Part shown: in pieces, positions 1 to 31,737 of the stretch
How positions within the stretch are numbered: position 1 is the first letter of the stretch
Layout of the letters: each line of letters starts with the position of its first letter
The notes under the pieces: generated by a model
Database searches by the model: none
What the model was told of the DNA's origin: nothing
Seen by the model: the letters and a program-made list of their open reading frames with translations, nothing else
Position numbers and translations under genes: made by a program
NCBI GenBank assembly: GCA_002841035.1
Contig: PHDR01000001.1
Span: 1 to 31,855, forward strand
Length of the DNA stretch: 31,855 bases
DNA from: Bacteroidetes bacterium HGW-Bacteroidetes-12
GTDB lineage: Bacteria > Bacteroidota > Bacteroidia > Flavobacteriales_E > Vicingaceae
Direction: 5' to 3'

Positions 1-157
1 TTATTATTTAGTTCTAATTAATATTTTGTGCTATCATTTTAGCTGGGTTCCTCCTAAATGATAGGCTGTTTTTTGTCATTCAGAAGGAATCTTGCTTATT
101 ATTTAGTTCTAATTAATATTTTGTGCTATCATTTTAGCTGGGTTCCTCCTGAATGAC
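1..157. repeat. 95-bp-period direct repeat with REP-like inverted ends (BIME-like unit, cut by window edge)
   Basis: 1-55 is identical to 96-150 (ttattatttagttctaattaatattttgtgctatcattttagctgggttcctcct). gtcattcagaaggaatc (75-91) is a near-perfect inverse of ggttcctcctgaatgac (141-157). Confidence 0.8.
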
Positions 158-173
158 GAAGGCTATAGAAAAC

Positions 174-222
174 AAAAAATGCTTCAATTAAGGCATTTTT
201 ATCCTTAAAAGAAGCATTTTTT
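174..222. terminator. Hairpin with T-tracts on both strands; likely terminates the minus-strand CRISPR transcript
   Basis: aaaaaatgcttc (174-185) and gaagcatttttt (211-222) form a perfect 12-bp inverted repeat, with an inner ttaagg/ccttaa stem. Confidence 0.65.
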
Positions 223-275
223 ATATCCGATATTCTTTTTTAACTTTTTGATTTTTAACAATTTTCGCAACTGCT
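223..275. promoter_or_regulatory. Putative CRISPR adaptation leader with IHF site (241-253)
   Basis: AT-rich stretch abutting the first repeat. The minus strand of 241-253 reads AATCAAAAAGTTA, an exact match to the IHF consensus WATCAANNNNTTR, 22 bp from the repeat. Confidence 0.6.
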
Positions 276-2220
276 AATATCGTGTTTCCTAATCTTTAAT
301 CAAACCACAACAATATTCTTCCATCAAGCAATGCATGGCTGAATATCGTGTTTCCTAATCTTTAATCAAACCACAACTTTAAATTGGAATTTGCTAATTG
401 CTTCAGCAATATCGTGTTTCCTAATCTTTAATCAAACCACAACTGTTATATTATTGTTGTCATAACCTAATTGAATATCGTGTTTCCTAATCTTTAATCA
501 AACCACAACATTAGTTATATCATAGCATATTAATCTAAGAATATCGTGTTTCCTAATCTTTAATCAAACCACAACAGGCTTTGGTGCGATGAATTATCTG
601 AAGAAAATATCGTGTTTCCTAATCTTTAATCAAACCACAACTATCTTTACGAGATGTAATTCTTGTGTTATAATATCGTGTTTCCTAATCTTTAATCAAA
701 CCACAACAACAACCATGTCAAATATATCAGGCGTAGTAATATCGTGTTTCCTAATCTTTAATCAAACCACAACCCGAGATGACCGCGATATGATAAGGAA
801 GGTAATATCGTGTTTCCTAATCTTTAATCAAACCACAACCTCTGAATATATTGAATGGTCTTTTGATAAATATCGTGTTTCCTAATCTTTAATCAAACCA
901 CAACTTAAAAGAAAAACACAAAACAATAGAAAAAAATATCGTGTTTCCTAATCTTTAATCAAACCACAACTGCTTCGTCTATTTTGCTTTTTAGCATTTT
1001 AATATCGTGTTTCCTAATCTTTAATCAAACCACAACCGACAAGGAGCGAGAACAGTTACAGCAACCAATATCGTGTTTCCTAATCTTTAATCAAACCACA
1101 ACTGTGATGTGCATGAACATTCATATTTCATTAATATCGTGTTTCCTAATCTTTAATCAAACCACAACCAGTAAGAGGAGAAAACGGTGATGTGGATTAA
1201 TATCGTGTTTCCTAATCTTTAATCAAACCACAACTATCAAGTAAGATACCTTATTTAATAGAGTAATATCGTGTTTCCTAATCTTTAATCAAACCACAAC
1301 AAAAACCTAAAGCTATGGAAATTACTGCAAATATCGTGTTTCCTAATCTTTAATCAAACCACAACACAAATTCTGTAAGTTCGTTGTCATCGTGCAATAT
1401 CGTGTTTCCTAATCTTTAATCAAACCACAACACCGCAAAGATACAACCAAACAGAGGTTAAAATATCGTGTTTCCTAATCTTTAATCAAACCACAACAAA
1501 ACGCAATTAAAATGATAAATAATAAAAATATCGTGTTTCCTAATCTTTAATCAAACCACAACAATGTGCTATGTCGGTAAAAGAAGGACGTAAATATCGT
1601 GTTTCCTAATCTTTAATCAAACCACAACAGATAAGAGTTAACAACGGAGCTATTGAAAAATATCGTGTTTCCTAATCTTTAATCAAACCACAACCTTAAT
1701 CGACATGGTAGTTAATTGGCTTTTAATATCGTGTTTCCTAATCTTTAATCAAACCACAACATGACTATGTTGCAGAAATACTAATTGACAAATATCGTGT
1801 TTCCTAATCTTTAATCAAACCACAACTTGTCGTAAAATCCGATTTTGATGCAATGAATATCGTGTTTCCTAATCTTTAATCAAACCACAACATGAAATGG
1901 CTAAGGAGCGAAATTGGAAGCAATATCGTGTTTCCTAATCTTTAATCAAACCACAACCGAAGCATGAACGAAGTGAAATACTAACTAAATATCGTGTTTC
2001 CTAATCTTTAATCAAACCACAACATAAATAATTATCATTAAAAAAACAACAATAATATCGTGTTTCCTAATCTTTAATCAAACCACAACAACGCAAGTTT
2101 TTATGTTGTTGATGAAAAAATATCGTGTTTCCTAATCTTTAATCAAACCACAACATCACTTATCCACTTTGGGAAGAAGGAAAAAATATCGTGTTTCCTA
2201 ATCTTTAATCAAACCACAAC
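276..2220 (-). CRISPR. Type II-C CRISPR array: 30 identical 36-bp repeats, 29 spacers (24 of 30 bp, 5 of 29 bp)
   Basis: Repeat aatatcgtgtttcctaatctttaatcaaaccacaac, or GTTGTGGTTTGATTAAAGATTAGGAAACACGATATT on minus, counted copy by copy from 276 to 2185. The lengths sum exactly to 1945 bp. Strand inferred from complementarity to the tracrRNA. Confidence 0.99.
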
Positions 2221-2412: not shown

Positions 2413-2694
2413 TTATTTATCTAAATAATGACCCATTGCAGAAAGCACTTGAACCGTTACGGTATTATTATTTATAGTATAAATCATACTGTCTTTTTGG
2501 TTAATTCTTCTACTCCATTTACCTGCAAGCTCGTGTTTAAGTTGTTCGGGTTGCCCAGTTCCTGTTGTTGGGTGGTCTGATAACTCTTTTAAAATCTGTT
2601 CCAACTTTTTAATGGTTGGTTTATTCCCAAATTTATAATGTTTTTTAATATCAATTTGTGCTGCTTTTTCTATTTTAAGCCTAAACTTCCCCAT
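2413..2694 (-). CDS. yoeB: Txe/YoeB family toxin (copy B; Ser at the position of the conserved catalytic Arg)
   Basis: GTGQPEQLKHELAGKWSRRINQKD...GHY matches the YoeB signature GKPEPLKH...WSRRI...HY. Overlaps the upstream antitoxin by 25 nt. Confidence 0.92.
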   Translation of the reverse strand: MGKFRLKIEKAAQIDIKKHYKFGNKPTIKKLEQILKELSDHPTTGTGQPEQLKHELAGKWSRRINQKDSMIYTINNNTVTVQVLSAMGHYLDK

Positions 2695-2906
2695 ACATCA
2701 TTTGGATTAATTTCTAAATAATCTGCACGTTTTTCTGCATCTTTAATTTTTTTAACAAACTCAGGGTTGTAAGGGCTTTTTTCTTTTACAACTGGTGCAC
2801 TAACAATTTCAACTGCTTTTTCTTTAGCAACAAAAGTTTTAAGAAAAGCTAAAAAAGTTTTTCCTGCAATGGTATTGTCGTTAATTTTTAATGTTAGTGT
2901 TGTCAT
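2670..2906 (-). CDS. Antitoxin, DUF2683-like (copy B)
   Basis: 78 aa directly upstream of and overlapping yoeB. The KSPYNPEFV motif is typical of Bacteroidota DUF2683 proteins (recognised from memory). Confidence 0.8.
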   Translation of the reverse strand: MTTLTLKINDNTIAGKTFLAFLKTFVAKEKAVEIVSAPVVKEKSPYNPEFVKKIKDAEKRADYLEINPNDVWGSLGLK

Positions 2907-2920
2907 ATATTGTAAGTTTT

Positions 2921-3202
2921 TTATTTATCAGCATAATGCCCTATTGCAGAAATAACATCAACCACTACGGTGGTATTGTTTATGGAGTAAACCATACGGT
3001 CTTTTTGGTTAATTCTCCTACTCCATTTACCTGCGAGTTCGTGTTTTAATTGTTCAGGCTGTCCTGTTCCTGTGGTTGGGTGATTTTTTAGTTCCTCCAG
3101 TATCTTTTTAATTTTTGTTTCAGCGGCTTTATTGCCTGATTTTTTATGTTTGGCAATATCGTCTTTTGCCTTTTGGGTTAAGAAAACTACAAACTTGCCC
3201 AT
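2921..3202 (-). CDS. yoeB: Txe/YoeB family toxin (copy A)
   Basis: Same YoeB signature, with KDRMVY retaining the Arg and a C-terminal GHY. Overlaps the antitoxin by 16 nt. Confidence 0.93.
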   Translation of the reverse strand: MGKFVVFLTQKAKDDIAKHKKSGNKAAETKIKKILEELKNHPTTGTGQPEQLKHELAGKWSRRINQKDRMVYSINNTTVVVDVISAIGHYADK

Positions 3203-3417
3203 AAATCGTTAACATCTTTTACTTCTGTTCTGTTTTTGCTTTTTTCGGCTTTGTTTATCATTTTAACAAACTCAGGATTGTAAGGGCTTTTTTCTTTTAC
3301 AACTGGTGCTTTAATAATTTCAACTGCTTTTTCTTTAGCAACAAAGGTTTTAAGAAAAGCTAAAAAAGTTTTTCCTGCATTTGTTTTGTCGTTAATTTTT
3401 AGGGTTAGTGTGGTCAT
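3187..3417 (-). CDS. Antitoxin, DUF2683-like (copy A)
   Basis: 76 aa, KSPYNPEFV motif, 48 of the first 52 residues identical to copy B, upstream of yoeB. Confidence 0.8.
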   Translation of the reverse strand: MTTLTLKINDKTNAGKTFLAFLKTFVAKEKAVEIIKAPVVKEKSPYNPEFVKMINKAEKSKNRTEVKDVNDLWASL

Positions 3418-3443
3418 AACTTTTATGTGTTCTATTCCTGTTT

Positions 3444-3451
3444 CAAAATTA
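3444..3451 (-). promoter_or_regulatory. Bacteroidota sigma70 -7 element for the DUF2683-yoeB operon
   Basis: TAATTTTG on the minus strand (consensus TAnnTTTG), 26 bp upstream of the ATG at 3417. Confidence 0.6.
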
Positions 3452-3474
3452 AGAAAAAATTATAAAATGAATTT

Positions 3475-3741
3475 TTAAGGAAAAACTTTATAAATATCGT
3501 TTCGTTTTACCAAACGAGCCATTTCAATCGTTTCATTGTCGTAATAAAATCCTAATCGGTAATTACCTATTCTAATTCGGTATGCAGTAGAATAACCTTT
3601 TAATTTTTTTAGGTTGGTCAACTCCTTTAAATTTTCAGCTTTCTCTATCTCTAAAATAATTGTTTTTACCTGTTCTCTCTCTTTTACATTCGTAATTTTA
3701 AGTAAATCTTTTTTAAAACTGTTTAAAAAGATGACTTTCAT
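3475..3741 (-). CDS. RelE/StbE (RelE/ParE superfamily) toxin
   Basis: 88 aa basic protein. MKVIFLNSFKKDL...KKLKG...YRIRIGNYRLGF...RNDIY is the RelE pattern. ATGA overlap with the upstream gene. Confidence 0.88.
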   Translation of the reverse strand: MKVIFLNSFKKDLLKITNVKEREQVKTIILEIEKAENLKELTNLKKLKGYSTAYRIRIGNYRLGFYYDNETIEMARLVKRNDIYKVFP

Positions 3742-3992
3742 TTTTTGTTTAAGATTTCCATAATATCATCACGGTTTGCCAAATCGGTTCTGTCGGCTTG
3801 TTGCATCAATAACAGTAAGCCTAAATCTTCTTTTTCTTCGCTGGTAAGTTTATCTAAGCGTTGTTTTTCTTTTTGAGCCACAAACCAACGCACGGCTTCT
3901 TCCATCAAGCCTTTTACACTGTTGTTTTCAAAAACAGATAATATCTTCAATTTGGTTAAAATAGCTTCGTCTATGTCAATATTTTTCCGCAT
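3738..3992 (-). CDS. Ribbon-helix-helix (CopG-like) antitoxin
   Basis: N-terminal alternating beta strand RKNIDID followed by two helices, acidic C-terminus, translationally coupled to relE. Confidence 0.72.
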   Translation of the reverse strand: MRKNIDIDEAILTKLKILSVFENNSVKGLMEEAVRWFVAQKEKQRLDKLTSEEKEDLGLLLLMQQADRTDLANRDDIMEILNKK

Positions 3993-4044: not shown

Positions 4045-7000
4045 TTATATTTTTTCTATTTTGCCTGTTGGGGTTATTTGAACTTTTATTGGATTAAAAC
4101 TATACCACCCTGTTTTGCCCTCTCTAAATCCTTTAATATAAACATAATCCGCTTCGGTTGAAATTTTGCTATCCGTATGTCTTCTAAAACAGATTTCCAT
4201 AAAATAATCTGCTCCAGCAATCTTTTGAACCTTAAATAAATGGCTAAATATCTCCTTTTGGTTTAAATCCTCTATGTTTCTATCTTTCTCTAAAAATAGA
4301 AGAAACATATCATTTTCTTGAAATGTTTCTACAACCTCAACTCCATCGCTGGGCAATTGTACTATTTCATTATTTTGTTTTATCCGCTCAACTGCTGTCC
4401 AAAAACTAACCACATCTTTATCTAAATCCCCATTTTCTTTTTTATAAATTAAAACGTGATGATTATTTCTAGGGTTTACAAATTGGTTAATTTCCTTTAC
4501 TTGTTGGGCATTGCTCATTTCTTCTCTAATTCGCACTTTTTTAATAGGAACTCGTTCACCGTTTTTATTTTTTAAGGTGTAGAGCAAATCAATTTGTTTT
4601 TTCAAATCTTGTATTTGGTTGTTTAAAGCAGTTTCTTCTTCATCGCTATGCACTTTCTTTTTTTGCTTTTCTAAAACGTCTATGTGTTTTTTTATGGTTA
4701 CTTCTTCTTTTCGGGCATTTATAATAATTTTTCTGATTTCTAAGTCCACAATTTTATCCAATTGATTGTCCTTTAAATCTACTACCTTTTTACGAATGTG
4801 GTAACCTTTTGTAGTTTCAAAGGGAGCTTGTCGTTTCCCATACACGTTTTCTTTGTGTAATTGACCCCGTACGGCATTACCAACACTTGTAAATGTTTTT
4901 CCATTTTTGGTAATTTTCTTTCGTACTTCGGTGAGTACTTTTCGGTTTTGTTTGTGAGAAATCAATATTTTTTCGGCTTCTTTTTTGGCATCGGTATGAA
5001 AACCATTCCAAGGGTCAGGAAAATCTAATTGTTCTTTTTCAAATGAGTTTAATTTCTTTTTAGCATCACGAGCAGCATTATAAGCACTCAATTGCTGAAA
5101 ATAACTTTGTTTTGATAAAGCGATTACTAAGGCATCAATAGCGTGGTGGCGGTGGTCGTCTCTGTTTTTCTTTGGGTCAAATTTAATTTCTCCAGTGTAT
5201 TTATCTACCCAAATATTCCCTTCAACTAATGTTTGTTTTTCTTGTAAAAGTGGTTTGGGTTGTTCGATGGCATTGAAATCGGTTAATTCATTAAGAATAT
5301 CAAAAACAAACCAATATTTACCTGGTTTTTCATTGGTTTTAAATTGATGTTGAGCATCAATTTCAGAAACAAAAATACCTTCATCATTGACACTACCTTC
5401 CACAATAATTTTAGCATCCGAAACAATAGGACGTTCATTTATGGCTCTTTCAAATGAAGCATTTTCTGTATCAATATCCAACAACAACCAATATTTACCG
5501 TCTAATTCATTTGTTTCACACGAATAAATATACGATTTAAAAAAGCCTTCTTTTACTTCGCCAAACAACAATACTTGTTTTCCCGATTTTTTAGGTTGTT
5601 TATCTTTTTCGGGTGCTTCAAACTTTTTGTTTGTAATGGTAAATTTTGCCCAATACGAACCATTATCAAAACCTTTGGCAGTAACCAACCCAATGCCCTC
5701 ATTTTTAAATTTTTCCTTTTCAACCTTTCCTCTCAAAACTATTTCATTTTCTGAGGTTTCTGGTCTTTCTCTAAAAATACGTATGATTTGTTTTGGTTCA
5801 GAAAGTTTTAAATTCAACCAATATTCGCCATTTACCAATTCGGGAGTTTTAACTTCAAGTTTTACAAATTGTTCGGAGGTTTTAAAAACTCCTTTCTCCA
5901 CTTTGCCGGTAATGGTTGTTTCGTTTTCTCCTAATTTTGGTTTGTCATTGTAAATAGGTAAGGTTAAAACGGGTTTATTATTTTCATCCATTACCACATA
6001 ATGTGGTATTGATTTTCCTGCTTCTAATTTATAATCGGGCAAATCGACCAACATTACGGGTTGAAGTATATTATTTAAACCCCACAAATGCCTTAACTCG
6101 GCTGTTAAACCACCAGGCAAAACTCTTACATCTTCGCAAACTTGCGACATAATTTCTTTTGTTTTACGGCTGATGTAACGCATATCGTTTAATTGTCGCT
6201 CAATAAAACTACTTTTTACATCGGCATCTTCTACTTTAATTTTAGATGTAAATCGTTTGGCTTTTGGGTAAGGTAAGACTTTGTAAGCTCTTTGCTCTAC
6301 ATCTTCCCAGCTTGTTGCTCCTCCCCACAATTTTGAATCGCTATTTTTTAAATAAAATTGATAGGGAGTTAAGTTTCCTTTCAAACCATTAAACTTGGCA
6401 TCGCAAAGGGTTTTGTTGGCAAAACCATCATCTAAAGAAACGCTTTTAGGAATAATATGCTCAATCTGAATTTTATTTTCTCTGCCCAACACATCGCTAA
6501 TATTGATGGATTTATTGGTGTAAGGACAAACTGTAGTTACCCCTTTTTCCTGCATTTCTTTATAGAGCAACACTTTTTGGATGTTTTCCCTATCGTGCTT
6601 TAAGCCATATTCTGTTAACAATTTTCGAGCTTCGTCATTTTTGGTAGTGTTGTCATAAATTCTTCTCGTTTGTTCTTGCCTTCCTTTTTTGCTGTTTTTT
6701 ACTTCTCTTCCTAATTCAACTTGAATTCTATCAAATTTCCCATATTCACCAATTAGTTGGTTTACTAATCTTCGAGTTTCGTTGATACCTTGCTGCACAA
6801 TTGGGTTTCTTAAATTTTCAACCGCATCTAATCTATCTTGAAGTTGTTTTTCTTCAATTTCTTGGCTGTGATGATACAACTTGATAAAAGATTTGTCGTC
6901 TTTTAAAAATCCAAATTTATTTTCTGGGTCAGCCAAATAATTTTTAATTTTTTGAATTGCTTCTCCTTCTTTATTATTTTTCTCGTGATTAATTTTTAAA

Positions 7001-8734: not shown

Positions 8735-8827
8735 AGAAAAAAGAATCCTAATCTTTAATCTTATCACAATAAGGCTATATGCCGTAGATGAAAATCTTTA
8801 GTCCCGCTTCGGTGGGACTTTTTTTTT
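8735..8827 (+). ncRNA. tracrRNA (5' end approximate)
   Basis: Anti-repeat 8746-8770 pairs with repeat nt 1-25 (two G-U pairs, a 2x2 U-U loop). It is followed by the nexus AAGGC-UAUAU-GCC, the hairpin AGAU-GAAA-AUCU, and a UUCG-capped hairpin with a U-tract. Confidence 0.93.
8800..8827 (+). terminator. Intrinsic terminator of tracrRNA
   Basis: AGTCCCGC-TTCG-GTGGGACT followed by a run of T. Confidence 0.88.
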
Positions 8828-8829
8828 GT

Positions 8830-8884
8830 GTTCTCGATACGGTTCAACTCCGCTAAAGCTACATTAAACCTACTCGAACGGACA
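8830..8884. repeat. REP-like element
   Basis: 44/55 ungapped identity to 11639-11693 (gttctcgatac...tactcg..c.gaca). Confidence 0.8.
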
Positions 8885-8949
8885 AAAAAACAATATTGAA
8901 ACTTTCCACTAATTTCTATATCTTTATGGTTTATTTTATAAAGATAAAA

Positions 8950-12835: not shown

Positions 12836-15800
12836 ATGTTTACAGAATTTTTCACAAAAGAAATCACAAGTGCGTTAAAACGCCCAATGATTTATATTTT
12901 TTTATTCATAATTACCTTATTGGTTTTTGGTGCTGTGGCTAGCGACAATGTAGTTATTGGCGGTTCGGTTGGTAATGTGTATAAAAATGCTCCGCACGTA
13001 ATAACAACCTATGTATCAATATTAACCATTTTTGGATTAATGATAGCCACTGCTTTTTTTAATAATGCAGCCCTGCGTGATTACGAAAACGATTTTAACG
13101 AAATTTTGTTCTCCACTCCAATTAAAAAATCGGCTTATTTTTTCGGTCGTTTTTTTGGAGCATTAGTGCTATCAACTATTCCATTGTTGGGCGTTTTTTT
13201 AGGTTTTTTATTAGGTGCAGTCATTGGTCCGGCAGCAGGTTGGATCGAACCCGACCGAATAGGGCCGTTTTATTTTAGTTCTTTCGTAAACAATTATTTG
13301 CTACTCATTCTTCCTAATATGTTTTTTGCAGGAGCTATCATTTTTGCAATGGCAAACCAATGGAAAAGCACCGTAATTTCTTTTGTTGGAACATTAATTA
13401 TAATTATTGGATACCTTGTTTCTGGAACGCTTTTATCGGACTTAGAAAATCAAGTATTAGGAGCATTAACCGATATTTTTGGTATGAGAGCTTATAGTGT
13501 TGATGCTCGTTATTTTACGCCTATGGAAAAAAATACTGTTTCTATTGGATTTAGCGGTTGGTTGCTCTACAACAGAATGATTTGGATAAGTGTAGGGATT
13601 TTGATTTTAGCAGTTGCCTATAAACTATTTTCTTTTACCGAAAAACAAAAGAAAACAAAAGAAATTAAACCCGAAAAGAAAACCATCACACAATTTTATT
13701 TGCCAAAAATTAGCCTCAACTTTAATGCAAAAAGCCAACTTACCTTTTTTAATAGTTTCTTTAAAATAAGTCTATTAAGTATCTTAAAAAGCACTACTTA
13801 CAAAATTCTTTTTGTGTTTAGCACCATTCTTATCATCGTAACTTTTTATGGCGGGTTTGAATATTATGGGTTGCACGCTTATCCGCTAACATACAATATG
13901 ATAGAAGACATAAACAATACCACTTCTATTTTTGTTATCATTATACTGGTGTTTTTTAGTGGCGAATTAATTTGGAAAGATAGAAATAGCCACATCAACG
14001 AAGTAATAGATTCCACACCGCATTTTTCAATTGTTTCGTTAATTGCAAAAGCCGTTTCGTTGGTTATTGTTACTTCATTAATCAACTTATTTTTAATATT
14101 AATTGCCCTATTTTACCAATTAATAAATGGCTACACTAATTTAGAACTTTCTGTTTATGCCTTAGATTTTTTATACAACAATTTGCCTAAATACGCTACT
14201 TGGTCTATGGTTTTGCTTTTTATTCAAGTAATAATTAACAATAAATACATTGGTTATTTTATTTCTATTTTATTTCTTTTTTTGTTAGATATTATTTTTT
14301 TAATGCTCGAAATAAATACCAATATGTTTAGAATTGGAGCAACACCAAGTATGACTTACTCTGATATGAATGAATTTGGACCAGCTCTTCCAAGTGTTTT
14401 ATGGTTTAATTTATATTGGTTTTTATTTGGTGTTTTCTGTTTACTTTTAGCGGGTTTGTTTTGGATAAGAGGCACTTCCGAAAGCTTTAAAATAAGAGTT
14501 ACTTCCCTAAAAAAACACCTTAACAAAAACTATACAATAGGAATTAGTAGTGTTTTTATAGCGTTTATTGGCGTTGCCGGATTTTTATACTACAATACGC
14601 AAATTTTAAATCATTACAACACTTCTGACGAAGATGAAAAAGACCAGATTGCTTATGAAACAACCTATAAAAAATACGAAAATAGTCTAATCCCAAAAGT
14701 GGTTGATATAAAATATGATATAGCCATTTATCCTGAAACAAGAAAAGTAGAGGCTAAAATTAAGCTGAAATTAGTAAACAAAACCGCTTTACCTATAGAT
14801 AGTTTACATTTTTCATTAACCAAAAAGTGGAATCAAAAAATATACATCAAAAATGCGAAGCAAGTTTTAAACGATGAAAAATTAGATTACACTATTTATA
14901 AATTAAATAAGGCTTTGTTGCCAAACGATACAATAGCCATTTTAGTAGAAGCAACATACATCAACAAAGGTATTGAAAATGAAGTAAGTAGCCTTGATAT
15001 TATAAAAAACGGAACCTTCTTCAATAATTTTAATATTTTACCCTACATGGGCTACAACGAGGGTGTAGAAATAGCAGATAAAAATACTCGAAAAAAGCAC
15101 AACTTACCCGAAAAAAAACGAATGCCCAAACTAGAAGAAAATTGTGGTGTTAATTGCATGCAAAATTATTTAAGTAATGGCAGAGCCGATTGGGTTACTG
15201 TAGAAACCGTAATATCAACCTCCATAAACCAATTGGCTGTTGCACCTGGTTCATTAATAAAAGAATGGCAAGAAAATAACCGAAATTATTTTAATTACAA
15301 AGTAGATACTATTTCTCAAAATTTCTACTCCTTTATGTCGGCAGAATATCAAGTAGCCCGAAGAAAATGGAAAGGAATAGATTTAGAAGTGTATTATGAT
15401 AAAAAACACACCTACAACACCGAAATTATGCTCGATGCCTTACAAAAATCATTAAGTTACTACACCGAAAATTTTGGTCCTTATTTTCACAAACAAGCCC
15501 GAATTATTGAATTTCCGAGATATTCCACATTTGCACAAGCGTTTCCTGGCACTATGCCCTATTCCGAAGCATTTGGTTTTGTTATCGATTTAAGAGATGC
15601 CGAAAAAAATAATGTAATCGACTTTGTGATTGCTCACGAAATGGCACATCAGTGGTGGGCTCACCAAGTAGTTGGTGCTAATATGCAAGGCGGAACAATG
15701 TTAAGCGAAAGTTTTGCTGAATATTCTGCTTTAATGGTGATGAAAAAAACATTGAACGATTCGTTAAAAATGAAAAACTTTTTAAAATACGATTTAGATA

Positions 15801-16408
15801 GATATTTGAATGGAAGAAGTGGTGAAACAGAAAACGAGTTGCCACTATACAAAGTAGAAAATCAAGGATATATTCACTACGGAAAAGGGAGTGTTATTAT
15901 GTATGCCTTGCAAGATTATGTTGGTGAAAAAAACGTAAACACCGCACTTAAAAACTTTTTAGAAGAATATCGATACAAAGAACCTCCTTACCCAACTTCG
16001 TTAAATTTTTTAAACCATTTAGAAGCTCAATTGCCCGATTCTCAAAAATATTTGATAACCGATTGGTTTAAAGAAATTACATTATACGACTTTAGATTAA
16101 CAGAAGCCTCCTACAAAAAAGTGAACAACAACTATGAAATTACAATGAAAGTAGAAGCTTATAAATTAAAAGCCGACACTATTGGCAACGAAACCAAAGT
16201 TGAACTGAATGATTGGGTAAATATTGGTGTTTATGCCGATAAAGATGAAAAAAAATTACTCTATGAGAAAAAAGTTCTGTTTAATAAGAAAAATAACCAT
16301 TTCACTTTTACGGTAAATGCCTTGCCTGCAAAAGCTGCCATAGACCCTCGTAAAATTCTTATAGAACGAGTTTATACCGACAACACAAAAAGCATAACAG
16401 AAATGTAA
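12836..16408 (+). CDS. ABC-2 type permease fused to an M1-family metallopeptidase domain
   Basis: Two multi-TM halves in the first ~590 aa, then a soluble domain with HEMAH (15635) and a downstream Glu in LSESFAEY, plus YIHYGKG. Confidence 0.9.
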   Translation: MFTEFFTKEITSALKRPMIYIFLFIITLLVFGAVASDNVVIGGSVGNVYKNAPHVITTYVSILTIFGLMIATAFFNNAALRDYENDFNEILFSTPIKKSAYFFGRFFGALVLSTIPLLGVFLGFLLGAVIGPAAGWIEPDRIGPFYFSSFVNNYLLLILPNMFFAGAIIFAMANQWKSTVISFVGTLIIIIGYLVSGTLLSDLENQVLGALTDIFGMRAYSVDARYFTPMEKNTVSIGFSGWLLYNRMIWISVGILILAVAYKLFSFTEKQKKTKEIKPEKKTITQFYLPKISLNFNAKSQLTFFNSFFKISLLSILKSTTYKILFVFSTILIIVTFYGGFEYYGLHAYPLTYNMIEDINNTTSIFVIIILVFFSGELIWKDRNSHINEVIDSTPHFSIVSLIAKAVSLVIVTSLINLFLILIALFYQLINGYTNLELSVYALDFLYNNLPKYATWSMVLLFIQVIINNKYIGYFISILFLFLLDIIFLMLEINTNMFRIGATPSMTYSDMNEFGPALPSVLWFNLYWFLFGVFCLLLAGLFWIRGTSESFKIRVTSLKKHLNKNYTIGISSVFIAFIGVAGFLYYNTQILNHYNTSDEDEKDQIAYETTYKKYENSLIPKVVDIKYDIAIYPETRKVEAKIKLKLVNKTALPIDSLHFSLTKKWNQKIYIKNAKQVLNDEKLDYTIYKLNKALLPNDTIAILVEATYINKGIENEVSSLDIIKNGTFFNNFNILPYMGYNEGVEIADKNTRKKHNLPEKKRMPKLEENCGVNCMQNYLSNGRADWVTVETVISTSINQLAVAPGSLIKEWQENNRNYFNYKVDTISQNFYSFMSAEYQVARRKWKGIDLEVYYDKKHTYNTEIMLDALQKSLSYYTENFGPYFHKQARIIEFPRYSTFAQAFPGTMPYSEAFGFVIDLRDAEKNNVIDFVIAHEMAHQWWAHQVVGANMQGGTMLSESFAEYSALMVMKKTLNDSLKMKNFLKYDLDRYLNGRSGETENELPLYKVENQGYIHYGKGSVIMYALQDYVGEKNVNTALKNFLEEYRYKEPPYPTSLNFLNHLEAQLPDSQKYLITDWFKEITLYDFRLTEASYKKVNNNYEITMKVEAYKLKADTIGNETKVELNDWVNIGVYADKDEKKLLYEKKVLFNKKNNHFTFTVNALPAKAAIDPRKILIERVYTDNTKSITEM

Positions 16409-19479: not shown

Positions 19480-22400
19480 ATGAACTTAAAAAAATCAATT
19501 TGTTTATCCTTTATTTTATTTGTTACATCAACATTGCTAATTGCTCAAAGAGGAAAAGATGGTGCTAAGATAATTTCTGGTACCGAAGTTGTAAATGCGT
19601 TCACAATACTTACGAGCAACGCTAGTATAGGGTCAACATCAATAACCGTAGCAAACAGTTCTTTAACCACCAACTTCCCAACACCACTTTCACAAGGCGA
19701 TCTAATACTAATCTATCAAGTTCAAGGAGCATCAATAGAAGATACTGTTGATAATATAAATATCGGAAATTCATCGAGATTTTTTCAATCTTGGGGCTCA
19801 ATTACAAATTATAACAATACTGGAAACTATGAGTTTCTTCAAGTTTCAAGTGTTCCAAACGCAACAACCATAAACTTTGATTGTGCATTATCATTAAACT
19901 ATACCGCTGCCGACAGGGTTGTTGTAATAAGAGTGCCTAGATACACTTCTTTAACAGTAAATAATGGTGGGATTTTAACCACATTGCCTTGGAATGGTTC
20001 TATCGGTGGTGTTTTAGCTGTTGAGGTTTTAGGTTTAACAACAATTAATACGGGAGGAACTGTTGATGTTAGTGGATTAGGATTTAGAGGGGGAGCAGCA
20101 TATACAACAAGCGTAATAACTGTTAATGGAGGATTACGTTATGCAGATGCTAATAATTTAGCATTAGAAGGTACTGAAAAAGGAGAAGGAATTGCTGGGG
20201 ACCAAACTGTTTACGCTACATTTAATTTAGGAGGTGCTGGATATTGCAGGGGTGCAGCTGCAAATGCTGGTGGTGGTGGAAATGGGCATAACTCCGGTGG
20301 TGGTGGTGGTGCTAATGCTGGAGACATTTTAAATTGGAACAGAGGAGTTGGAACTCCAGATATAAGTAACCCTAATTATATTACAGCATGGGGATTAGAT
20401 ACAACATTACAACCAACAACCGTATCTTCTGGAGGCGGAAGAGGTGGTTATTCTATTTTAAAAAACAATAGAAACGAACTAACCACTCCTCCTAATGATG
20501 TATTATGGGGTGGCGATTTCAGAAGAGATAATGGAGGTTTAGGAGGCAGACCGTTGGATTATTCCACTGGAAAGCTATTTTTTGGTGGTGGTGGTGGTGC
20601 TGGAGAAGGCGATAATGGTCAAGCTAGCAATGGTGGTAATGGAGGTGGTTTAATTTTTATTTCTTCCTACGGTAATATTACTGGTGGTGGGAAAATTAAA
20701 GCAAATGGAAGAAATGGTGTTGATGTTAATCCGGGCTCTGCACCAATTGGACAACTTAGGGGTATAGATGCTGCTGGAGGTGCTGGTGCTGGAGGAACAA
20801 TCATTTTAAAAACAACTGGCACTGTTTCTTTAACAGATTCTATTGTTGCAAATGGAGGACGAGGCGGTAATCAAGTATTGGTTGCTGGTTTATTTGCAAC
20901 CATTGATGAAGGAGAAGGTCCTGGTGGTGGAGGTGGTGGTGGTTATATTGCTATTTCTGCGGGAACCCCTCCTTTAAGAGTTGCTAATGGTGGTATAAAT
21001 GGAGTAACTAATTGTCCTTATGTTTCGTTATTCCCTCCTAATGGAGCTACAATGGGTGGAACTGGTTTAGCAAATGAAACCATTAACAGTTTCGATATTG
21101 TTGTTACTGGAGATAGCATTTGTGCTAACACAACTGCTTTAATTTCTGCTTCATTAACAGGTAATCCTCCTTTAGGAGCATCTATTGAATGGTTTGATGC
21201 TCAGTTTAATGGAAACTTAGTGTTTTCTGGCTCTAATTTTACGACACCTATATTAGCAACTTCAACAACCTATTGGGTTAGAGTTTGTCCTGCACCCTAT
21301 TTAGTACCTGTTCTAGTAACCGTTGTTCCTTGCACTTTTCCTATAGCAAATTTTAGTTCTTCAGACAGTTCCATTTGTATTAATGATTGTATTAGTTTTA
21401 CCGATTTAAGCTCTGGAAGTCCAACAAATTGGTCGTGGTATTTCTTTGGATCTTCCACTCCTACTTCATCACAACAAAATCCAACCAATGTATGTTACCC
21501 CAACGCAGGAAGTTTTGATGTAGCTTTAGTTATAAACAACACAAATGGACAAGATTCTATCTTTATAGCTAATTTTATTACCATAAACCCTCTACCAACT
21601 GTTGTAGCTAGTAACAATACTTCTATTTGTTTGGGAAGCTCAGCCACTATTTCTGCTTCTGGAGCGTTAACTTACACTTGGAACAATGGCTTAGGTGCTG
21701 GTCAAAATCATGCTGTTTCTCCAATTACAACTACAACCTATATTGTTACTGGAACTGATGTGAATGGTTGTCAAAATACAGATAATGTTGTTGTTACTGT
21801 TATTAATTGTGGAAATTCTCCTATTGCTAATTTTAGTGCATCAGACAGTTCCATCTGTATTAATGATTGTATTAGTTTTACAGACTTAAGTGTAGGATTA
21901 CCTACTAATTGGACGTGGTATTTCTTTGGATCTTCCACTCCTACTTCATCACAACAAAATCCAACCAATATTTGTTACCCAACTTCTGGAAGTTTTGATG
22001 TAGCTTTGGTTGTATCAAACGCAAATGGACAAGATTCTATTTTCTTAACTAATTTTATTACTGTAAATGCACTTCCTAATGTATTTGCAAATACAACCAA
22101 CGATACTATTTGTTCAGGAAATTCAGTAACACTAACAGGAAGTGGAGCGGCAAACTATACTTGGAACAATGGCGTTGTTGATGGCGTTTCAACCACACCT
22201 CCTACTCTACCAATTACTTATAATGTTGTTGGCACCGATCTTAACGGTTGTTCTAATTCAAATTCTGTTACCGTTTATTCTACTCCTCCACCTGTTGCCA
22301 CTAGTTTATTGGTTCCTGCTTCTGATTTTTGTGTGAACATTGGTGTTTTATTTAATGCCTCTTTTTCTCAAAATGCAACAGTATTTAACTGGATAATTTC

Positions 22401-23085
22401 CCAAAATACGAATGTTATTTTTACAGATACAGCCGCTCAAACATCATTTACTTTTACGAGTGCAGGGCAATATACTTATATGCTTATTGCTTCAAATGGT
22501 TGTGAAAGTGATACATTAATTGAAAACATTACTGTTCAACCAATTCCTGTTGCTAACGCAACTTTTTCTTCGTTAATAGATTTGTGTGCTGGTGTTCCTA
22601 TTTTATTTGATGCTACTAACTCCTTAAATTCAGCTGGATTTTTATGGACATTTAACGAAGGTAATCCAAGCATAACCAATTCAAGCACAAACCCAATTAA
22701 TGTAACTTTTGGAGATACAGGCACACACAATTTTACGCTTGAAGCAATAAATATTTGCGGAAGAGATACTTTTGAAGGTTCTATTTCTATTGATTCTTGC
22801 TTATTTATTACGCCATCGTTTACAATTCCAAATGTATTTAGCCCTAATAACGATGGGAATAATGATTTTTTCTTTGTTGAAAGTTTTGAGTTAGATGCTT
22901 TAGATATGAAAATATATAACCGATGGGGCGAGAAAATTTTTGAAGCCAATGAAATCAATGCAGCTTGGGACGGAAAAACTACCTCAGGGAACGAAAGTTC
23001 TGAAGGTACTTATTTCTACATTATTACAATTACCATTTCGGGGAAAAAAGAAGTTTATAAAGGAACATTATCTTTATTGAGGTAG
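19480..23085 (+). CDS. Secreted glycine-rich, PKD/Ig-repeat protein with a gliding-motility-associated (T9SS type B) C-terminal domain
   Basis: Signal peptide, poly-Gly N-terminal half, PKD repeats (PIANFS...W.W.F...QNP...Y...G.F.V.L), C-terminal IPNVFSPNNDGNND...IYNRWGE...WDG...GTYFY...GTLSLLR. Confidence 0.9.
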   Translation: MNLKKSICLSFILFVTSTLLIAQRGKDGAKIISGTEVVNAFTILTSNASIGSTSITVANSSLTTNFPTPLSQGDLILIYQVQGASIEDTVDNINIGNSSRFFQSWGSITNYNNTGNYEFLQVSSVPNATTINFDCALSLNYTAADRVVVIRVPRYTSLTVNNGGILTTLPWNGSIGGVLAVEVLGLTTINTGGTVDVSGLGFRGGAAYTTSVITVNGGLRYADANNLALEGTEKGEGIAGDQTVYATFNLGGAGYCRGAAANAGGGGNGHNSGGGGGANAGDILNWNRGVGTPDISNPNYITAWGLDTTLQPTTVSSGGGRGGYSILKNNRNELTTPPNDVLWGGDFRRDNGGLGGRPLDYSTGKLFFGGGGGAGEGDNGQASNGGNGGGLIFISSYGNITGGGKIKANGRNGVDVNPGSAPIGQLRGIDAAGGAGAGGTIILKTTGTVSLTDSIVANGGRGGNQVLVAGLFATIDEGEGPGGGGGGGYIAISAGTPPLRVANGGINGVTNCPYVSLFPPNGATMGGTGLANETINSFDIVVTGDSICANTTALISASLTGNPPLGASIEWFDAQFNGNLVFSGSNFTTPILATSTTYWVRVCPAPYLVPVLVTVVPCTFPIANFSSSDSSICINDCISFTDLSSGSPTNWSWYFFGSSTPTSSQQNPTNVCYPNAGSFDVALVINNTNGQDSIFIANFITINPLPTVVASNNTSICLGSSATISASGALTYTWNNGLGAGQNHAVSPITTTTYIVTGTDVNGCQNTDNVVVTVINCGNSPIANFSASDSSICINDCISFTDLSVGLPTNWTWYFFGSSTPTSSQQNPTNICYPTSGSFDVALVVSNANGQDSIFLTNFITVNALPNVFANTTNDTICSGNSVTLTGSGAANYTWNNGVVDGVSTTPPTLPITYNVVGTDLNGCSNSNSVTVYSTPPPVATSLLVPASDFCVNIGVLFNASFSQNATVFNWIISQNTNVIFTDTAAQTSFTFTSAGQYTYMLIASNGCESDTLIENITVQPIPVANATFSSLIDLCAGVPILFDATNSLNSAGFLWTFNEGNPSITNSSTNPINVTFGDTGTHNFTLEAINICGRDTFEGSISIDSCLFITPSFTIPNVFSPNNDGNNDFFFVESFELDALDMKIYNRWGEKIFEANEINAAWDGKTTSGNESSEGTYFYIITITISGKKEVYKGTLSLLR

Positions 23086-23505: not shown

Positions 23506-26500
23506 TTAATCTTGAATAATTGCTCTTTCAGCAGTTGCTTTTTTAAGTAGTTCATATTCTTCTTTAGAACCAACAACAATGTTTCTGAATTTTTTAAGAC
23601 CTGTACCTGCTGGAATTAATTTTCCAACAATTACATTTTCTTTCAATCCTTCTAATTCATCAACTTTTCCTCTAATTGCTGCTTCGTTTAAAACTTTAGT
23701 AGTTTCTTGGAAGGAAGCTGCAGAAATAAAGCTATCAGTTTGAAGAGATGCTCTTGTTATTCCTTGAATAATTGGGCTTGAAGTTGCTGGTACAGCTTCT
23801 CTACTTTCAACTAATTTTTTATCCATTCTTTTCAATTTAGAGTTTTCATCTCTTAATTGTCTTGAAGTTAAAATTTGACCTGGTTTAATCACATCAGACT
23901 CACCTGAATCAGTAACAATATATTTATCATAGATGTAATCGTTTTCTTCCATAAAATCACGTTTATTTACAATTTCTTTTTCTAAGAATTTTGTATCACC
24001 CTGATCTTCAATAACAACTTTTCGCATCATCTGACGAACAATTACTTCAAAGTGTTTATCGTTAATTTTTACTCCTTGTAATCGATAAACCTCTTGAACT
24101 TCATTCACAATATATTCTTGAACAGCTGTAGGTCCTTTAATCGCTAAGATATCAGATGGAGTAATGGATCCTTCTGAAAGAGGATTTCCTGCTTTCACAA
24201 AATCATTTTCTTGAACCAATATGTGTTTAGAAAGGTTTACTAAGTATTTTTTAACTTCACCTGTTCTTGATTCAATAACAATCTCTCTGTTACCACGTTT
24301 AATTTTTCCAAAAGAAACTATACCATCAATTTCGGAAACAACTGCTGGATTAGATGGATTTCTCGCTTCAAATAATTCTGTTACCCTTGGCAAACCACCT
24401 GTAATATCACCTGTTCCACCTGCTGTTCTTGGTATTTTCACAAGAATATCTCCTCCATTAACTTTGTTGCCTTCATTCACTATAATATGAGCTCCAACAG
24501 GTAAGTTATATGTTCTTAGCACTTCATTTTTTGAATTTACTACATTTAATAAAGGTATTTTTTTCTTGTCTTTAAATTCAGAAATTACTTTTTCAGTAAA
24601 TCCAGTTTGCTCATCTGATTCTTCTTTATAAGTAGCTCCTAACTCAAAATTTTCAAAAGCAACTTTTCCATCAACCTCTGTTAAAATCACAGCATTATAA
24701 GGATCCCAAACACAAATTTTATCTCCTTTCTTAACTTTATCACCATCTTTAACAAAGACTTGAGAACCATAAGGAATATTTCCTGTGGTTAAAACAACAT
24801 TGGTTTTAGTATCAATAATTTTCATTTCAGCAGAACGTCCAATTACTAAATTAATTTTCTCTCCTGCATCATTTGTTTTTTCTATTGTTCTTAATTCATC
24901 AATTTCTAAACGACCTTCATATCTAGCTTCAATTCCAGAAACACCAGTAATTTTAGATGCTGTACCCCCAATATGGAAGGTTCTAAGTGTTAATTGAGTT
25001 CCTGGCTCACCAATAGATTGTGCAGCAACAACACCAACAGGTTCTCCATGTTGCACCATTCTGCCTGTTGATAGATTTCTTCCATAGCATTTAGCACAAA
25101 CTCCTTTTCGTTGTTCACAAGTTAATACAGAACGTATTTCTACTTCATCAATATCAGCAGCTTCAATCGATTCAGCTATATCTTCTGTAATTTCATCTCC
25201 AGAAGCAACAATTAATTCATCGGTTGTTGGGTTGTAAATATCATGAACAGATGTTCTACCTAATATTCTATCAAATAAACTTTCTACAACTTCGTCATTA
25301 TTAATTAATGAAGTTGCTATTAGTCCTCTGAGGGTTCCACAATCATCAGAAGTAATTACCACATCTTGAGAAACATCAACCAATCTTCTTGTTAAATAAC
25401 CCGCATCGGCTGTTTTTAAGGCTGTATCTGCCAATCCTTTACGAGCCCCGTGAGTAGAAATAAAATATTCCAAAACGGACAAACCTTCTTTAAAGTTTGC
25501 TAAAATTGGATTTTCGATAATTTCTTGACCGTTAGATGAACCTGATTTTTGTGGTTTAGCCATCAATCCTCTCATTCCTGATAACTGGCGAATTTGTTCT
25601 TTAGAACCCCTTGCCCCAGAATCAAACATCATATAGATTGAGTTAAACCCTTGGTTATCATTTTTAAGGTTATCCATCAACACATTAGTAAGTCGAGTAT
25701 TCGTATGTGTCCAAATATCTATAATTTGATTGTAACGTTCATTGTTGGTAATGAAACCCATGTTATAGTTATTCATTACCTCGTTGACTTCAACATTAGC
25801 TTTTGCTACAAAAATTTCTTTTTCTTTAGGTATCATAATATCGTCTAAGTTAAACGATAAACCACCTTTAAAAGCCATATCATAACCTAATGTTTTGATA
25901 TCATCTAAAAATTCAACTGTTTTTTTAGGCCCACTAATTTTCAATACTTTACCGATAATATCTCGTAGCGATTTTTTTGTTAGAAGTTCGTTAACGAAAC
26001 CAACCTCTTCTGGCACCAATTCGTTAAAAATAACTCTTCCAGCTGAAGTATCAATTAGTTTTGTAACAATTTCACCGTTTTCAACATCTTTGGTTTTAAC
26101 TTTAATTTTTGCATGAATGTTTAATTTCCCTTCATTCAGTGCAATAATAACCTCTTCTGGAGAATAAAAAGTTTTTCCCTCTCCTACAATAGGATGTTCT
26201 TTTGTTGAAATTCTTTCTTTTGTAATATAATATAATCCAAGAACCATATCCTGAGATGGTAGGGTTACTGGAGTTCCATTTGCTGGATTTAAAATGTTAT
26301 GAGAGGATAACATTAATAACTGTGCTTCTAAAATTGCCGCATTACCTAAAGGTAAATGCACTGCCATTTGATCTCCATCAAAATCGGCATTAAATGCAGT
26401 ACAAACTAGTGGATGTAGTCGAATTGCTTTCCCTTCTATTAATTTTGGTTGGAAAGCCTGAATACCTAAACGGTGCAATGTAGGTGCACGGTTAAGCAAA

Positions 26501-27813
26501 ACTGGATGTCCTTTTAATATGCTTTCTAAAATATCCCAAACAACTGGTTCTTTTTTGTCAACTATTTTTTTAGCTGATTTAACTGTTTTTACAATGCCTC
26601 TTTCAATTAATTTGCGGATAACAAAAGGTTTATAAAGCTCTGCAGCCATATCTTTTGGAATACCACATTCGTGTAATTTCAAATCTGGTCCAACAACAAT
26701 TACAGAACGAGCAGAATAATCAACACGTTTTCCAAGTAAGTTTTGACGGAATCTACCAGATTTACCTTTTAAACTGTCTGATAAAGATTTTAAAGCTCTG
26801 TTTGCATCTGTTTTAACAGCACTTGATTTTCTAGAGTTATCTAGCAAGGCATCAACAGATTCTTGAAGCATACGTTTTTCATTTCTCAAGATTACATCTG
26901 GAGCTTTAATTTCCATCAATCTTTTTAAACGATTGTTTCTAATGATAACTCTTCTGTATAAATCATTCAAATCTGAAGTAGCAAATCTACCACCATCTAA
27001 CGGCACTAAAGGTCTTAATTCTGGTGGTATAACAGGAACTACTTTTAAAATCATCCACTCTGGACGGTTGTCTATGTTTAATTTAGATGCTCTGAATGCT
27101 TCAACAACCTGAAGTCTTTTTAATGCTTCGTTTTTACGTTGTTGAGAAGTTTCATTGTTTGCTTTGTGTCTTAAATCATAAGAAAGGCTATCTAAATCTA
27201 ATCGTTTTAGTAATTCATACAACGCCTCAGCACCCATTTTAGCAATGAATTTATTTGGGTCTGCATCATCTAAATATTGATTTTCTTTCGGAAGCGTATC
27301 AATAATATCAAAATACTCTTCTTCAGTTAAGAAATCTAAGTATTGAATTGGTTCTCCTTCACTATTAGTAACTCCAGCCGAATTAATTACTACATATCTT
27401 TCATAATAAATAATAGCATCTAATTTTTTTGTAGGCAATCCTAATAGGTAGCCAATTTTGTTTGGTAATGACTTGAAATACCAAATATGTGCAACAGGAA
27501 CAACTAACGAGATGTGTCCCATTCTTTCTCTTCGTACTTTCTTTTCAGTTACTTCAACGCCACATCTATCACAAATAATTCCTTTGTATCTAATTCTTTT
27601 ATATTTTCCACAATGACATTCAAAGTCTTTTACAGGTCCAAAAATTCGTTCACAAAATAAACCATCTCTTTCTGGTTTATAAGTTCTGTAGTTTATGGTT
27701 TCTGGTTTTAATACTTCTCCACTTGATCTTTCTAAGATTAATTCTGGAGATGATAAACTGATAGTAATTTTAGAAAAATTACTTGTTGTGTTATAATCAC
27801 GTTTAAAAGCCAT
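23506..27813 (-). CDS. rpoC: RNA polymerase beta' subunit
   Basis: KPETINYRT, Zn-finger CHCGKY...CDRCGVE, catalytic [17 protein letters not shown]. Confidence 0.99.
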
Positions 27814-27847
27814 AATATGTATAGTTTGTTTGGGTTAGTTTTTAATG

Positions 27848-27885
27848 GTTGATGAAATTGTTTTTATTAAAGCAATTTCATCAAC
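27848..27885. other. Hairpin in the rpoB-rpoC intergenic region
   Basis: gttgatgaaattgttt / aaagcaatttcatcaac arms. A T-tract follows only on the plus (antisense) strand. Confidence 0.6.
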
Positions 27886-27906
27886 TTTTATTTTTTTTGT
27901 TTTCAA

Positions 27907-30900: not shown

Positions 30901-31737
30901 TCTATCAATAATTACTTCATTTCTTTCGATAGAAACAACCTCTCCAGTATCTTCGTCCACAAAATCTTCAACCCATGTTTTTAGAACACGAGCGGCTAAT
31001 TTTCTACCTAATATCTTTTTTAATCCAGCTTTACTAACTTTCACTTCATCTGCTAAGTTAAAAAGCTCTAATATTTCTTTATCTGTTTCAAAACCAATGG
31101 CTCTAAAAAGCGTGGTTACAGGTAATTTTTTCTTTCTGTCAATATATGCATACATCACATTATTAATGTCTGTAGCAAATTCAATCCAAGAACCTCTAAA
31201 AGGGATAATTCTTGCTGAATATAATTTTGTTCCATTGGCATGTTTGCTTTGACCAAAGAAAACGCCTGGAGAACGATGCAATTGTGAAACAATAACACGT
31301 TCAGCACCATTGATAACAAAGGTTCCTTTAGGTGTCATGTAAGGAATTGTTCCTAAATAAACATCTTGAACGATAGTCTCAAAGTCTTCATGTTCTGGAT
31401 CAGTACAATATAACTTTAGCTTTGCTTTTAAAGGAACACTATAGGTTAACCCTCTTTCAATACATTCATCAATTGAATATCTTGGCGGATCGATGAAATA
31501 ATCCAAAAATTCCAACACAAACTGATTACGTGCGTCAGTAATTGGAAAATTCTCACTAAATACTTTAAATAGACCTTCAGAAGCTCTATTTTCAGGAGTT
31601 GTATCTAATTGAAAATAAGATTGAAATGATTTTATTTGTATATCCAAGAAATCAGGATATTCTAATTGGTTTATGGTAGATGAAAAATTAATCCTTGGAT
31701 TAGCATTTTTCTCTTTTGATGCCAATGTTTTATTCAT
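27907..31737 (-). CDS. rpoB: RNA polymerase beta subunit
   Basis: [47 protein letters not shown]. Confidence 0.99.

Follow-up and report, generated by a model that had tools for sequence, protein, structure and literature searches.

Content of the locus

This study deals with a probable type II-C CRISPR-Cas9 locus carried by Bacteroidetes bacterium HGW-Bacteroidetes-12 (assembly GCA_002841035.1), and more specifically with an insert of 299 amino acids (aa) located within the RuvC-III region of its Cas9. The stretch of DNA analysed, hereafter the window, corresponds to positions 1 to 31,855 of contig PHDR01000001.1 (31,855 nucleotides, forward strand). It holds a cas9 gene, a CRISPR array and the anti-repeat of a trans-activating CRISPR RNA (tracrRNA), and their positions are given in Table 1 with those of the other features discussed below. 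We are confident that the insert is an all-beta accessory domain of type II-C Cas9, specific to one clade of these enzymes and derived from internal duplication.

The cas9 product (hereafter P0001) scored 501.3 bits against the TIGR01865 cas_Csn1 equivalog model, for a cut-off of 100. Pfam identified HNH_4 (E = 8.7e-18, residues 713-768) and RuvC_III (E = 2.1e-31), the latter match being broken into two stretches by the insert. All the catalytic residues are present (D8, E650, E735-H736, N759, H1174 and D1177), in agreement with an earlier note made on this DNA from its letters and open reading frames, which had described the nuclease residues as intact.

Table 1. Positions of the features discussed in the text (window coordinates, unless a related locus is named)
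Feature	Position	Strand	Basis or remark
cas9, probably type II-C, P0001, 1539 aa	4045-8664	-	translation, TIGR01865, Pfam
Insert, residues 869-1167, 299 aa (half-unit, four units, half-unit)	5164-6060	-	translation, hhalign, AlphaFold2
U0h, N-terminal half-unit, residues 869-908	5941-6060	-	last two strands of a unit and Pro linker; model strands 886-892, 898-903
U1, residues 909-967, Trp 949	5764-5940	-	hhalign E values: 8e-15 against U2, 4e-12 against U3, 3e-9 against U4
U2, residues 968-1023, Trp 1005	5596-5763	-	hhalign; compact fold together with U3
U3, residues 1024-1078, Trp 1059	5431-5595	-	hhalign; preceded by conserved basic linker K-D-K-Q-P-K-K (about 1019-1026)
U4, residues 1079-1137, Trp 1118	5254-5430	-	hhalign, charge; most acidic unit
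U5h, C-terminal half-unit, residues 1138-1167	5164-5253	-	first two strands of a unit; model strands 1145-1153, 1160-1164
HNH nuclease core, residues 713-768	6361-6528	-	Pfam HNH_4; wider domain about 650-815
RuvC-III catalytic helix, H1173-H1174-A-I-D1177	5134-5148	-	motif
CRISPR array with 30 repeats (36 nt each) and 29 spacers (29-30 nt)	276-2220	-	
tracrRNA anti-repeat, upstream of cas9 and divergently oriented	8746-8769	+	21 of 24 bases equal to the repeat reverse complement
Hairpin with T-run beyond the anti-repeat (inverted repeat I16)	8821-8890		
Two toxin-antitoxin pairs, YoeB/ParE-like toxin and DUF2683 antitoxin	2413-2906 and 2921-3417	-	
Third pair, ParE-like toxin and small RH3-like protein	3475-3992	-	
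Y1 transposase genes in related loci	L033:14973-16054; L042, L044, L045, L051, L053, L057, L058, L060-L062, L066, L067		

Delimitation and repeat architecture of the insert

The insert lies between LRHLWGLNNILQ (residues 857-868, the W-G-L helix) and RDDHRHHAIDA (residues 1168-1178). The 299 residues that the earlier note had counted between these motifs map exactly to residues 869-1167, i.e. window positions 5164-6060, and the four Trp residues that it had listed (949, 1005, 1059 and 1118) are where it placed them, within G-x-Y-W motifs beginning at residues 946, 1002, 1056 and 1115.

The borders of four units (U1 to U4) were placed at conserved linker prolines. Each pairwise Smith-Waterman alignment of these units was compared with 500 shuffles, giving z values between 3.9 and 13.9 with only 0-2 shuffles reaching the observed score, and hhalign comparisons among the unit profiles (38 homologues) gave probabilities of 89.5-98.4% with E values ranging from 2e-6 to 8e-15. 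The four degenerate repeats are therefore significant by self-alignment. The partial fifth repeat proposed along with them was not retained: what remains of the insert consists of one half-unit at its N-terminal end (U0h) and another at its C-terminal end (U5h). When joined and compared with a full unit (U1 and U4), the two half-units displayed a weak likeness to it (hhalign probability 31-53%, E values of 1e-4 to 5e-4). U5h forms a nearly invariant hairpin, E-G-x-I-W-V-D-K-Y-T-G-E-I-K-F-D-P, that leads into K-K-N-R, and G, W, G, I, F, D, K, N and R are invariant in the alignment of this region. The repeat is still visible at the protein level while it is gone at the DNA level, which supports the proposal of an old internal amplification of a small beta-rich module.

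Predicted structure and fold neighbours

The structure of residues 850-1185 was predicted with AlphaFold2 from 38 aligned homologues (model ma70d5eb4a959, mean pLDDT, i.e. predicted local distance difference test, 86). Between the flanking RuvC helices the model shows beta strands and no other secondary structure, so that the beta-rich character put forward by the earlier note extends to the whole insert. When U2 and U3 were predicted alone (residues 962-1080), the pLDDT reached 94.4 and the predicted template modelling score (pTM) 0.83; the pair would therefore behave as an autonomous compact domain. In structural searches with the larger model, the aligned ranges (model numbering) grouped 115-228 (U2 with U3) as one unit, 63-105 with 236-285 (U1 with U4) as another and 19..316 (the half-units) as a third. 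In the model, U2 and U3 appear to intertwine into a single double barrel located at the tip of the insert, and the aligned ranges suggest a nested layout in which U1 pairs with U4 and the half-units close the base next to RuvC.

Foldseek searches with the whole insert against PDB, AlphaFold DB clusters and BFVD returned nothing at E <= 0.001, and a feature search of the ESM Atlas gave no usable match. The top PDB match, the Thermus RNA polymerase beta' subunit 5vo8_D, is not meaningful (E = 0.011, probability 0.18, TM score 0.14, root-mean-square deviation 18 A). The lineage-specific beta inserts of bacterial RNA polymerase beta' (sandwich-barrel hybrid motif arrays) offer an analogy only, as they also consist of small beta modules, in tandem or nested, within a surface loop beside an active site. 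No match to the insert was found among Pfam or NCBIfam models or solved structures, nor did we find a description of it in the literature, and a variant of this kind goes unmentioned in the 2025 CRISPR-Cas classification; these searches agree with the earlier note, which did not recognise the repeat as a named Cas9 domain.

The U2-U3 pair alone gave weak matches whose identity was consistent, its nearest neighbours in PDB, AlphaFold DB and ESM Atlas being TOBE, Mop, OB_MalK and ModE/ModG domains (Foldseek probabilities 0.63-0.99). These tandem barrels resemble oligonucleotide/oligosaccharide-binding (OB) folds (e.g. GlcV 1oxs, ModE 1b9m, ModG 1h9m, ModC 3d31 and PotA 8zx1) and are built from two intertwined beta units of about 55 aa forming a double barrel of about 110-120 residues, a layout that the U2-U3 model may share. 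TOBE/Mop/MalK regulatory barrels bind ligands or partner proteins and are not known as binders of nucleic acid. These neighbours, together with a Cys (1049) and several aromatic residues that are invariant in the insert, could be taken to mean that the paired barrels, like TOBE/Mop domains, sense a ligand, a small anion or metabolite, and that its binding would tune RuvC. We consider this very unlikely, as hmmscan of residues 860-1175 against Pfam found no TOBE, TOBE_2, TOBE_3 or OB_MalK match even at E <= 1, no ligand-binding motif could be mapped on the insert, and we know of no Cas9 regulated by a small molecule.

Position beside the RuvC active site

The insert sits in a loop of the protein surface that joins the W-G-L helix to the RuvC-III catalytic helix. 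Its last residue, N1167, precedes the catalytic H1174 by 7 residues, which agrees with the location next to the non-target-strand active site stated in the earlier note. The basic residues K1165, K1166 and R1168 stand ahead of H1173, H1174 and D1177, and they align by motif with K974-V-R976 of SpCas9, with a possible offset of one residue. In SpCas9, the K974A and R976A substitutions impair non-target-strand cutting only (PMC5680257), while R976A and H982A relax the positioning of the non-target-strand nick (PMC12571883). By homology, the base of the insert should lie on the rim of the non-target-strand groove, since it adjoins the counterparts of K974 and R976.

Comparison with known Cas9s

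In the phylogenetic tree, the nearest enzymes are compact Bacteroidota II-C Cas9s of about 1050-1170 aa (loci L004, L005 and L007-L010, including P0157, 1167 aa). They share with P0001 the same flanks, i.e. the LR-x-x-W-G-L helix and K-N-R-x-D-H-R-H-H-A-x-D-A, and are 37-51% identical to it in the region that follows the insert; P0157 is 45% identical over 1132 aligned residues. They differ from it by the spacing between the flanking motifs, which is 12-18 residues (the earlier note had spoken of tens of residues for compact Cas9s), or 71 in L005/P0157. P0157 also lacks three small insertions of the recognition (REC) lobe found in P0001 at residues 90-110, 240-255 and 275-328, and these three together with the insert make up the excess in size of P0001 over P0157.

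Among solved structures, the best score was obtained with CbCas9 from Chryseobacterium (PDB 8iyq/8wmh, E = 3.8e-47), another large Bacteroidota II-C enzyme (1442 aa) that possesses the same nuclease motifs. Residues 874 and 1165 of P0001 align to residues 989 and 1025 of its chain, i.e. about 36 residues against 299, and the alignment to both GeoCas9 and CbCas9 resumes at P0001 residues 1164/1165. The extra size of CbCas9 is in REC, whereas the excess of P0001 is mainly in RuvC-III. CbCas9 works with an accessory protein, PcrIIC1; in contrast, no PIN-domain (PcrIIC1-like) gene stands beside cas9 in the window.

Among large flavobacterial II-C enzymes, the literature yielded biochemistry for one only, Fp2Cas9 from Flavobacterium psychrophilum (1548 aa, PMC12609912). 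It is probably not a member of the insert-bearing clade: the Glu of its HNH pair is at position 868, whereas about 745 would be expected in a clade member of this length, and this residue position points to a CbCas9-like architecture. The pair in question (residues 735-736 of P0001, window 6457-6462) is Glu-His in P0001 instead of the usual Asp-His, the Glu being invariant in 38 clade members, and the same substitution (E868) is reported for Fp2Cas9, an active enzyme (PMC12609912).

Distribution and origin

With the insert as query, a word-indexed search retrieved 157 proteins, and the 120 that were listed all carry HNH_4 and RuvC_III. In the approximately 100 listed homologues for which both flanking motifs were located, down to 40% identity, the gap between them was 294-306 aa, with one of 335. 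An exhaustive hidden Markov model (HMM) search with the insert alone against 1.84 billion representative proteins yielded 37 matches (clusters); each is a Cas9 or a fragment of one, and their gaps measure 297-329 aa. The earlier note had proposed to look for variation in repeat number among Cas9s and for copies of the module in non-Cas proteins; neither was found, every homologue detectable by the HMM search having an insert of 297-329 aa and no representative outside Cas9 being matched.

Named carriers include Gelidibacter, Bizionia, Lutibacter, Halpernia and several Flavobacterium species, and further carriers were found in Marinilabiliales/Bacteroidales, in one Cytophagales metagenome-assembled genome (MAG) and in MAGs of Chlorobiota and Caldisericaceae. 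The contigs binned outside Bacteroidota (L077 in a Caldisericaceae MAG, L062 and L079 in Chlorobiota MAGs) suggest that the gene was transferred horizontally or that the contigs were wrongly binned. A further 400 Bacteroidota genomes were sampled evenly; 63 of them contained a homologue of the C-terminal part of Cas9, and two of these had the insert; the motif spacing of the other Bacteroidota Cas9s was 12-18 aa (compact), 38-49 aa (CbCas9-like) or 71 aa (one genome).

A maximum-likelihood tree inferred from the regions flanking the insert grouped all 21 carriers and six compact Cas9s (about 1050-1170 aa) in one clade with 97/97 support, the branching within this clade being unresolved; the tree is compatible with a single gain of the insert. 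The insert arose by ancient tandem duplication in a Cas9 lineage whose nearest relatives are these compact enzymes.

The genome with the 71-aa loop at the insertion site (G109, locus L005; P0156 open reading frame, residues 430-501, and P0157) was considered separately. By eye, this loop resembles a repeat junction (Y-W ... K-E-K-P ... G-x-V-x-K-G-x-F). It could be an evolutionary intermediate, either precursor or remnant, but it scored only about 1-4 bits, which is not significant, against profiles made from the collapsed half-units, the N-terminal part or the whole insert, and it was not retained as such. It has one homologue, from which no profile could be built, and it remains no more than a lead.

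Conservation and charge

The mean identity of P0001 to 25 full-length relatives was computed by region, and reached 64% for RuvC-II and HNH, 58% for the REC lobe, 56% for the rest of RuvC-III, 46% for WED/PI and 45% for the insert. The insert thus evolves at the pace of WED/PI, these two regions being the least conserved of the protein. Its 38-sequence alignment nevertheless contains 26 invariant positions and many nearly invariant ones, and the combination of a kept length with 26 invariant positions at 45% identity fits a peripheral but selected domain.

The low identity could also be read as that of a tolerated passenger, a duplicated loop fixed once and devoid of a function of its own, at a site which is a surface loop of varying length among Cas9s (12 to 71 aa). 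We regard this reading as highly improbable: the length keeps to about 294-335 aa in lineages whose identity has fallen to 22-40%, the invariant and near-invariant positions run through the alignment, and a truncated or decayed insert occurs in none of the 37 clusters recovered from the 1.84 billion representatives. The insert is held at a constant length under purifying selection.

The net charge of the insert is -8.6 +/- 5.0 (38 homologues), for +48 in the rest of the protein, and it is unevenly shared among the units: U4 has a mean of -6.6 while U1 and U2 are at +2.0 and +1.4. The linker between U2 and U3 has conserved basic positions, K1020 and K1025. These charges bear on whether the insert is a direct clamp for nucleic acid, whose OB-like barrels would bind the displaced non-target strand, the duplex distal to the protospacer-adjacent motif (PAM) or the heteroduplex, and would thereby stabilise the R-loop or feed RuvC. 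Such a clamp would suit the insertion site, which adjoins the counterparts of two residues needed for non-target-strand cleavage, and it could use the positive U1 and U2 and the K-D-K-Q-P-K-K linker. However, the insert as a whole, and U4 above all, is acidic on an otherwise strongly basic protein, and its best fold neighbours, all of them weak matches, are TOBE/Mop domains and not nucleic-acid-binding OB folds. Because of its net acidic charge, we lean mildly against the insert being a general nucleic-acid-binding surface, and a clamp of this kind seems to us rather doubtful.

Genomic neighbourhood

Apart from the adaptation genes, the CRISPR-Cas system of the window looks complete. The window yielded no csn2, cas4, cas1 or cas2 gene, and Cas1 had no match in the 87.6%-complete MAG. 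A lack of csn2 and cas4 is as expected of subtype II-C, which would also carry cas1 and cas2. Of 47 related loci, 38 have both cas1 and cas2; in Flavobacteriaceae these genes follow past the array and are read from the other strand. The array is 275 nt from the end of the contig (window 1-275), which falls in a direct repeat of about 55 nt with copies starting at positions 1 and 96. The absence of cas1 and cas2 is probably due to an assembly break, because the contig stops where the relatives carry these genes, and a missing cas1 was accordingly rejected as a biological feature of this system.

The neighbours of cas9 in the window are three toxin-antitoxin pairs and a GH3-family gene. The three pairs (2413-3992, minus strand) lie between cas9 and the array, i.e. 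at the usual place of cas1 and cas2, and a Lutibacter locus (L033) has homologous small genes at the same place (L033:12060-12598). Further along the window are a protein with PKD repeats sorted by the type IX secretion system (19480-23085), a protein with an M1-peptidase domain (12836-16408), and rpoC and rpoB (23506-31737, minus strand); since the latter two are on the same contig, the CRISPR-Cas locus is chromosomal.

The neighbourhoods of the 47 related loci were also surveyed for a gene that could encode a partner of the insert. Apart from cas1 and cas2, no accessory gene is common to them, and an obligatory dedicated partner gene is therefore unlikely. The candidate of a conserved accessory gene was discarded, the frequent neighbours being RAYT-like Y1 transposases. 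In about 14 related loci (Table 1), these genes (about 190-230 aa, weakly IS200-like) separate cas1 from cas9 or from the array; in L033, one of them adjoins a palindrome-rich unit of 130 nt present in 4.2 copies. A 218-aa protein without Pfam or PADLOC match is encoded between cas9 and cas1 in L055, L061, L063, L066 and L070 (e.g. L070:12394-13047), all five being annotated as Bacteroidales or Marinilabiliaceae MAGs that bear an insert-type Cas9. It could be a lineage-specific accessory gene.

These surveys bear on the idea that the insert is an interface for outside proteins, which would shield the HNH/RuvC face from anti-CRISPRs (Acrs) or dock a host or Cas partner, for instance Cas1-Cas2 during acquisition. 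An evolutionary pace equal to that of WED/PI would fit a surface turned toward changing partners, and TOBE-type domains often mediate regulatory protein contacts. Yet only cas1 and cas2 are common to the 47 loci, the 218-aa protein is limited to five of them, and no Acr is known to us for the insert-bearing clade, so that we judge an interface of this type unlikely.

Possible function of the insert

The reading that we tentatively put forward, while holding it to be short of probable, is that the insert acts in cis on the nuclease step, by walling or gating the non-target-strand groove and by giving the HNH domain a docking face. According to this proposal, the insert would have no catalytic activity and would not bind DNA in general. 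With its root on the edge of the non-target-strand groove, immediately ahead of K-K-N-R, it would present a largely acidic beta surface that may form a wall or gate along the route by which the displaced strand enters RuvC. The same surface could serve as a docking face for the mobile HNH domain. As an outcome, the position of HNH might be coupled to RuvC cutting, or RuvC might be restrained until the R-loop forms. In favour of this reading count the site of the insert beside the counterparts of K974 and R976, its net acidic charge, its nearest folds being regulatory barrels, and the lack of a common accessory gene other than cas1 and cas2.

A docking prediction between HNH (residues 650-815) and the insert gave an ipSAE of 0.43, for 0.00 in the best of three controls, and was graded as weak support; on this model, the insert may contact the HNH domain of its own enzyme. 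When the procedure was calibrated, 58 of 80 solved complexes attained the pass mark, as did 2 of 110 mismatched pairs. Passes at or below 0.60 comprised 7 of the 80 solved complexes and both of the passing mismatched pairs, counts that apply only roughly here as custom alignments were used. The predicted interface involves a non-catalytic face of HNH and, on the side of the insert, both half-units and U1-U4, mostly U3 and U4.

Several points weigh against this cis-acting role. Unless the contact was likely beforehand, a docking pass of this size is false more often than true. The predicted contact on HNH excludes the catalytic E735, H736 and N759, and the interface is no more conserved than its background (entropy of 1.13 for the HNH side versus 0.87 elsewhere, and of 1.44 versus 1.47 for the insert), hence the pass gains no independent support from conservation. 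The placement of the insert relative to the RuvC groove is derived from chain connectivity alone, and no bench study of any clade member was found in the literature.

A bolder reading would make the insert a regulatory TOBE-like module, either sensor or docking platform, grown by fivefold duplication of a loop hairpin, and its host a Cas9 under natural allosteric control. In our opinion there is little chance that it holds.

Significance

REC is stated to tolerate insertions better than the other domains do, and the growth in size of Cas9s is attributed mainly to REC (PMC11871365). The lineage described here instead grew, as a whole, a folded domain of 300 residues inside RuvC, and one to three residues separate it from the basic motif by which the non-target strand is positioned. 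This accessory domain is apparently undescribed. It provides a clean example of a new domain that arose inside one protein family as a loop element was serially duplicated, with no copy elsewhere in 1.84 billion representatives. Should the insert gate or guide the non-target strand, or park HNH, it would represent a natural solution for the control of nick position and RuvC activity, the same goals that prime-editor work seeks through R976A and H982A (PMC12571883), and the insert-bearing clade offers a directly testable target in this respect.

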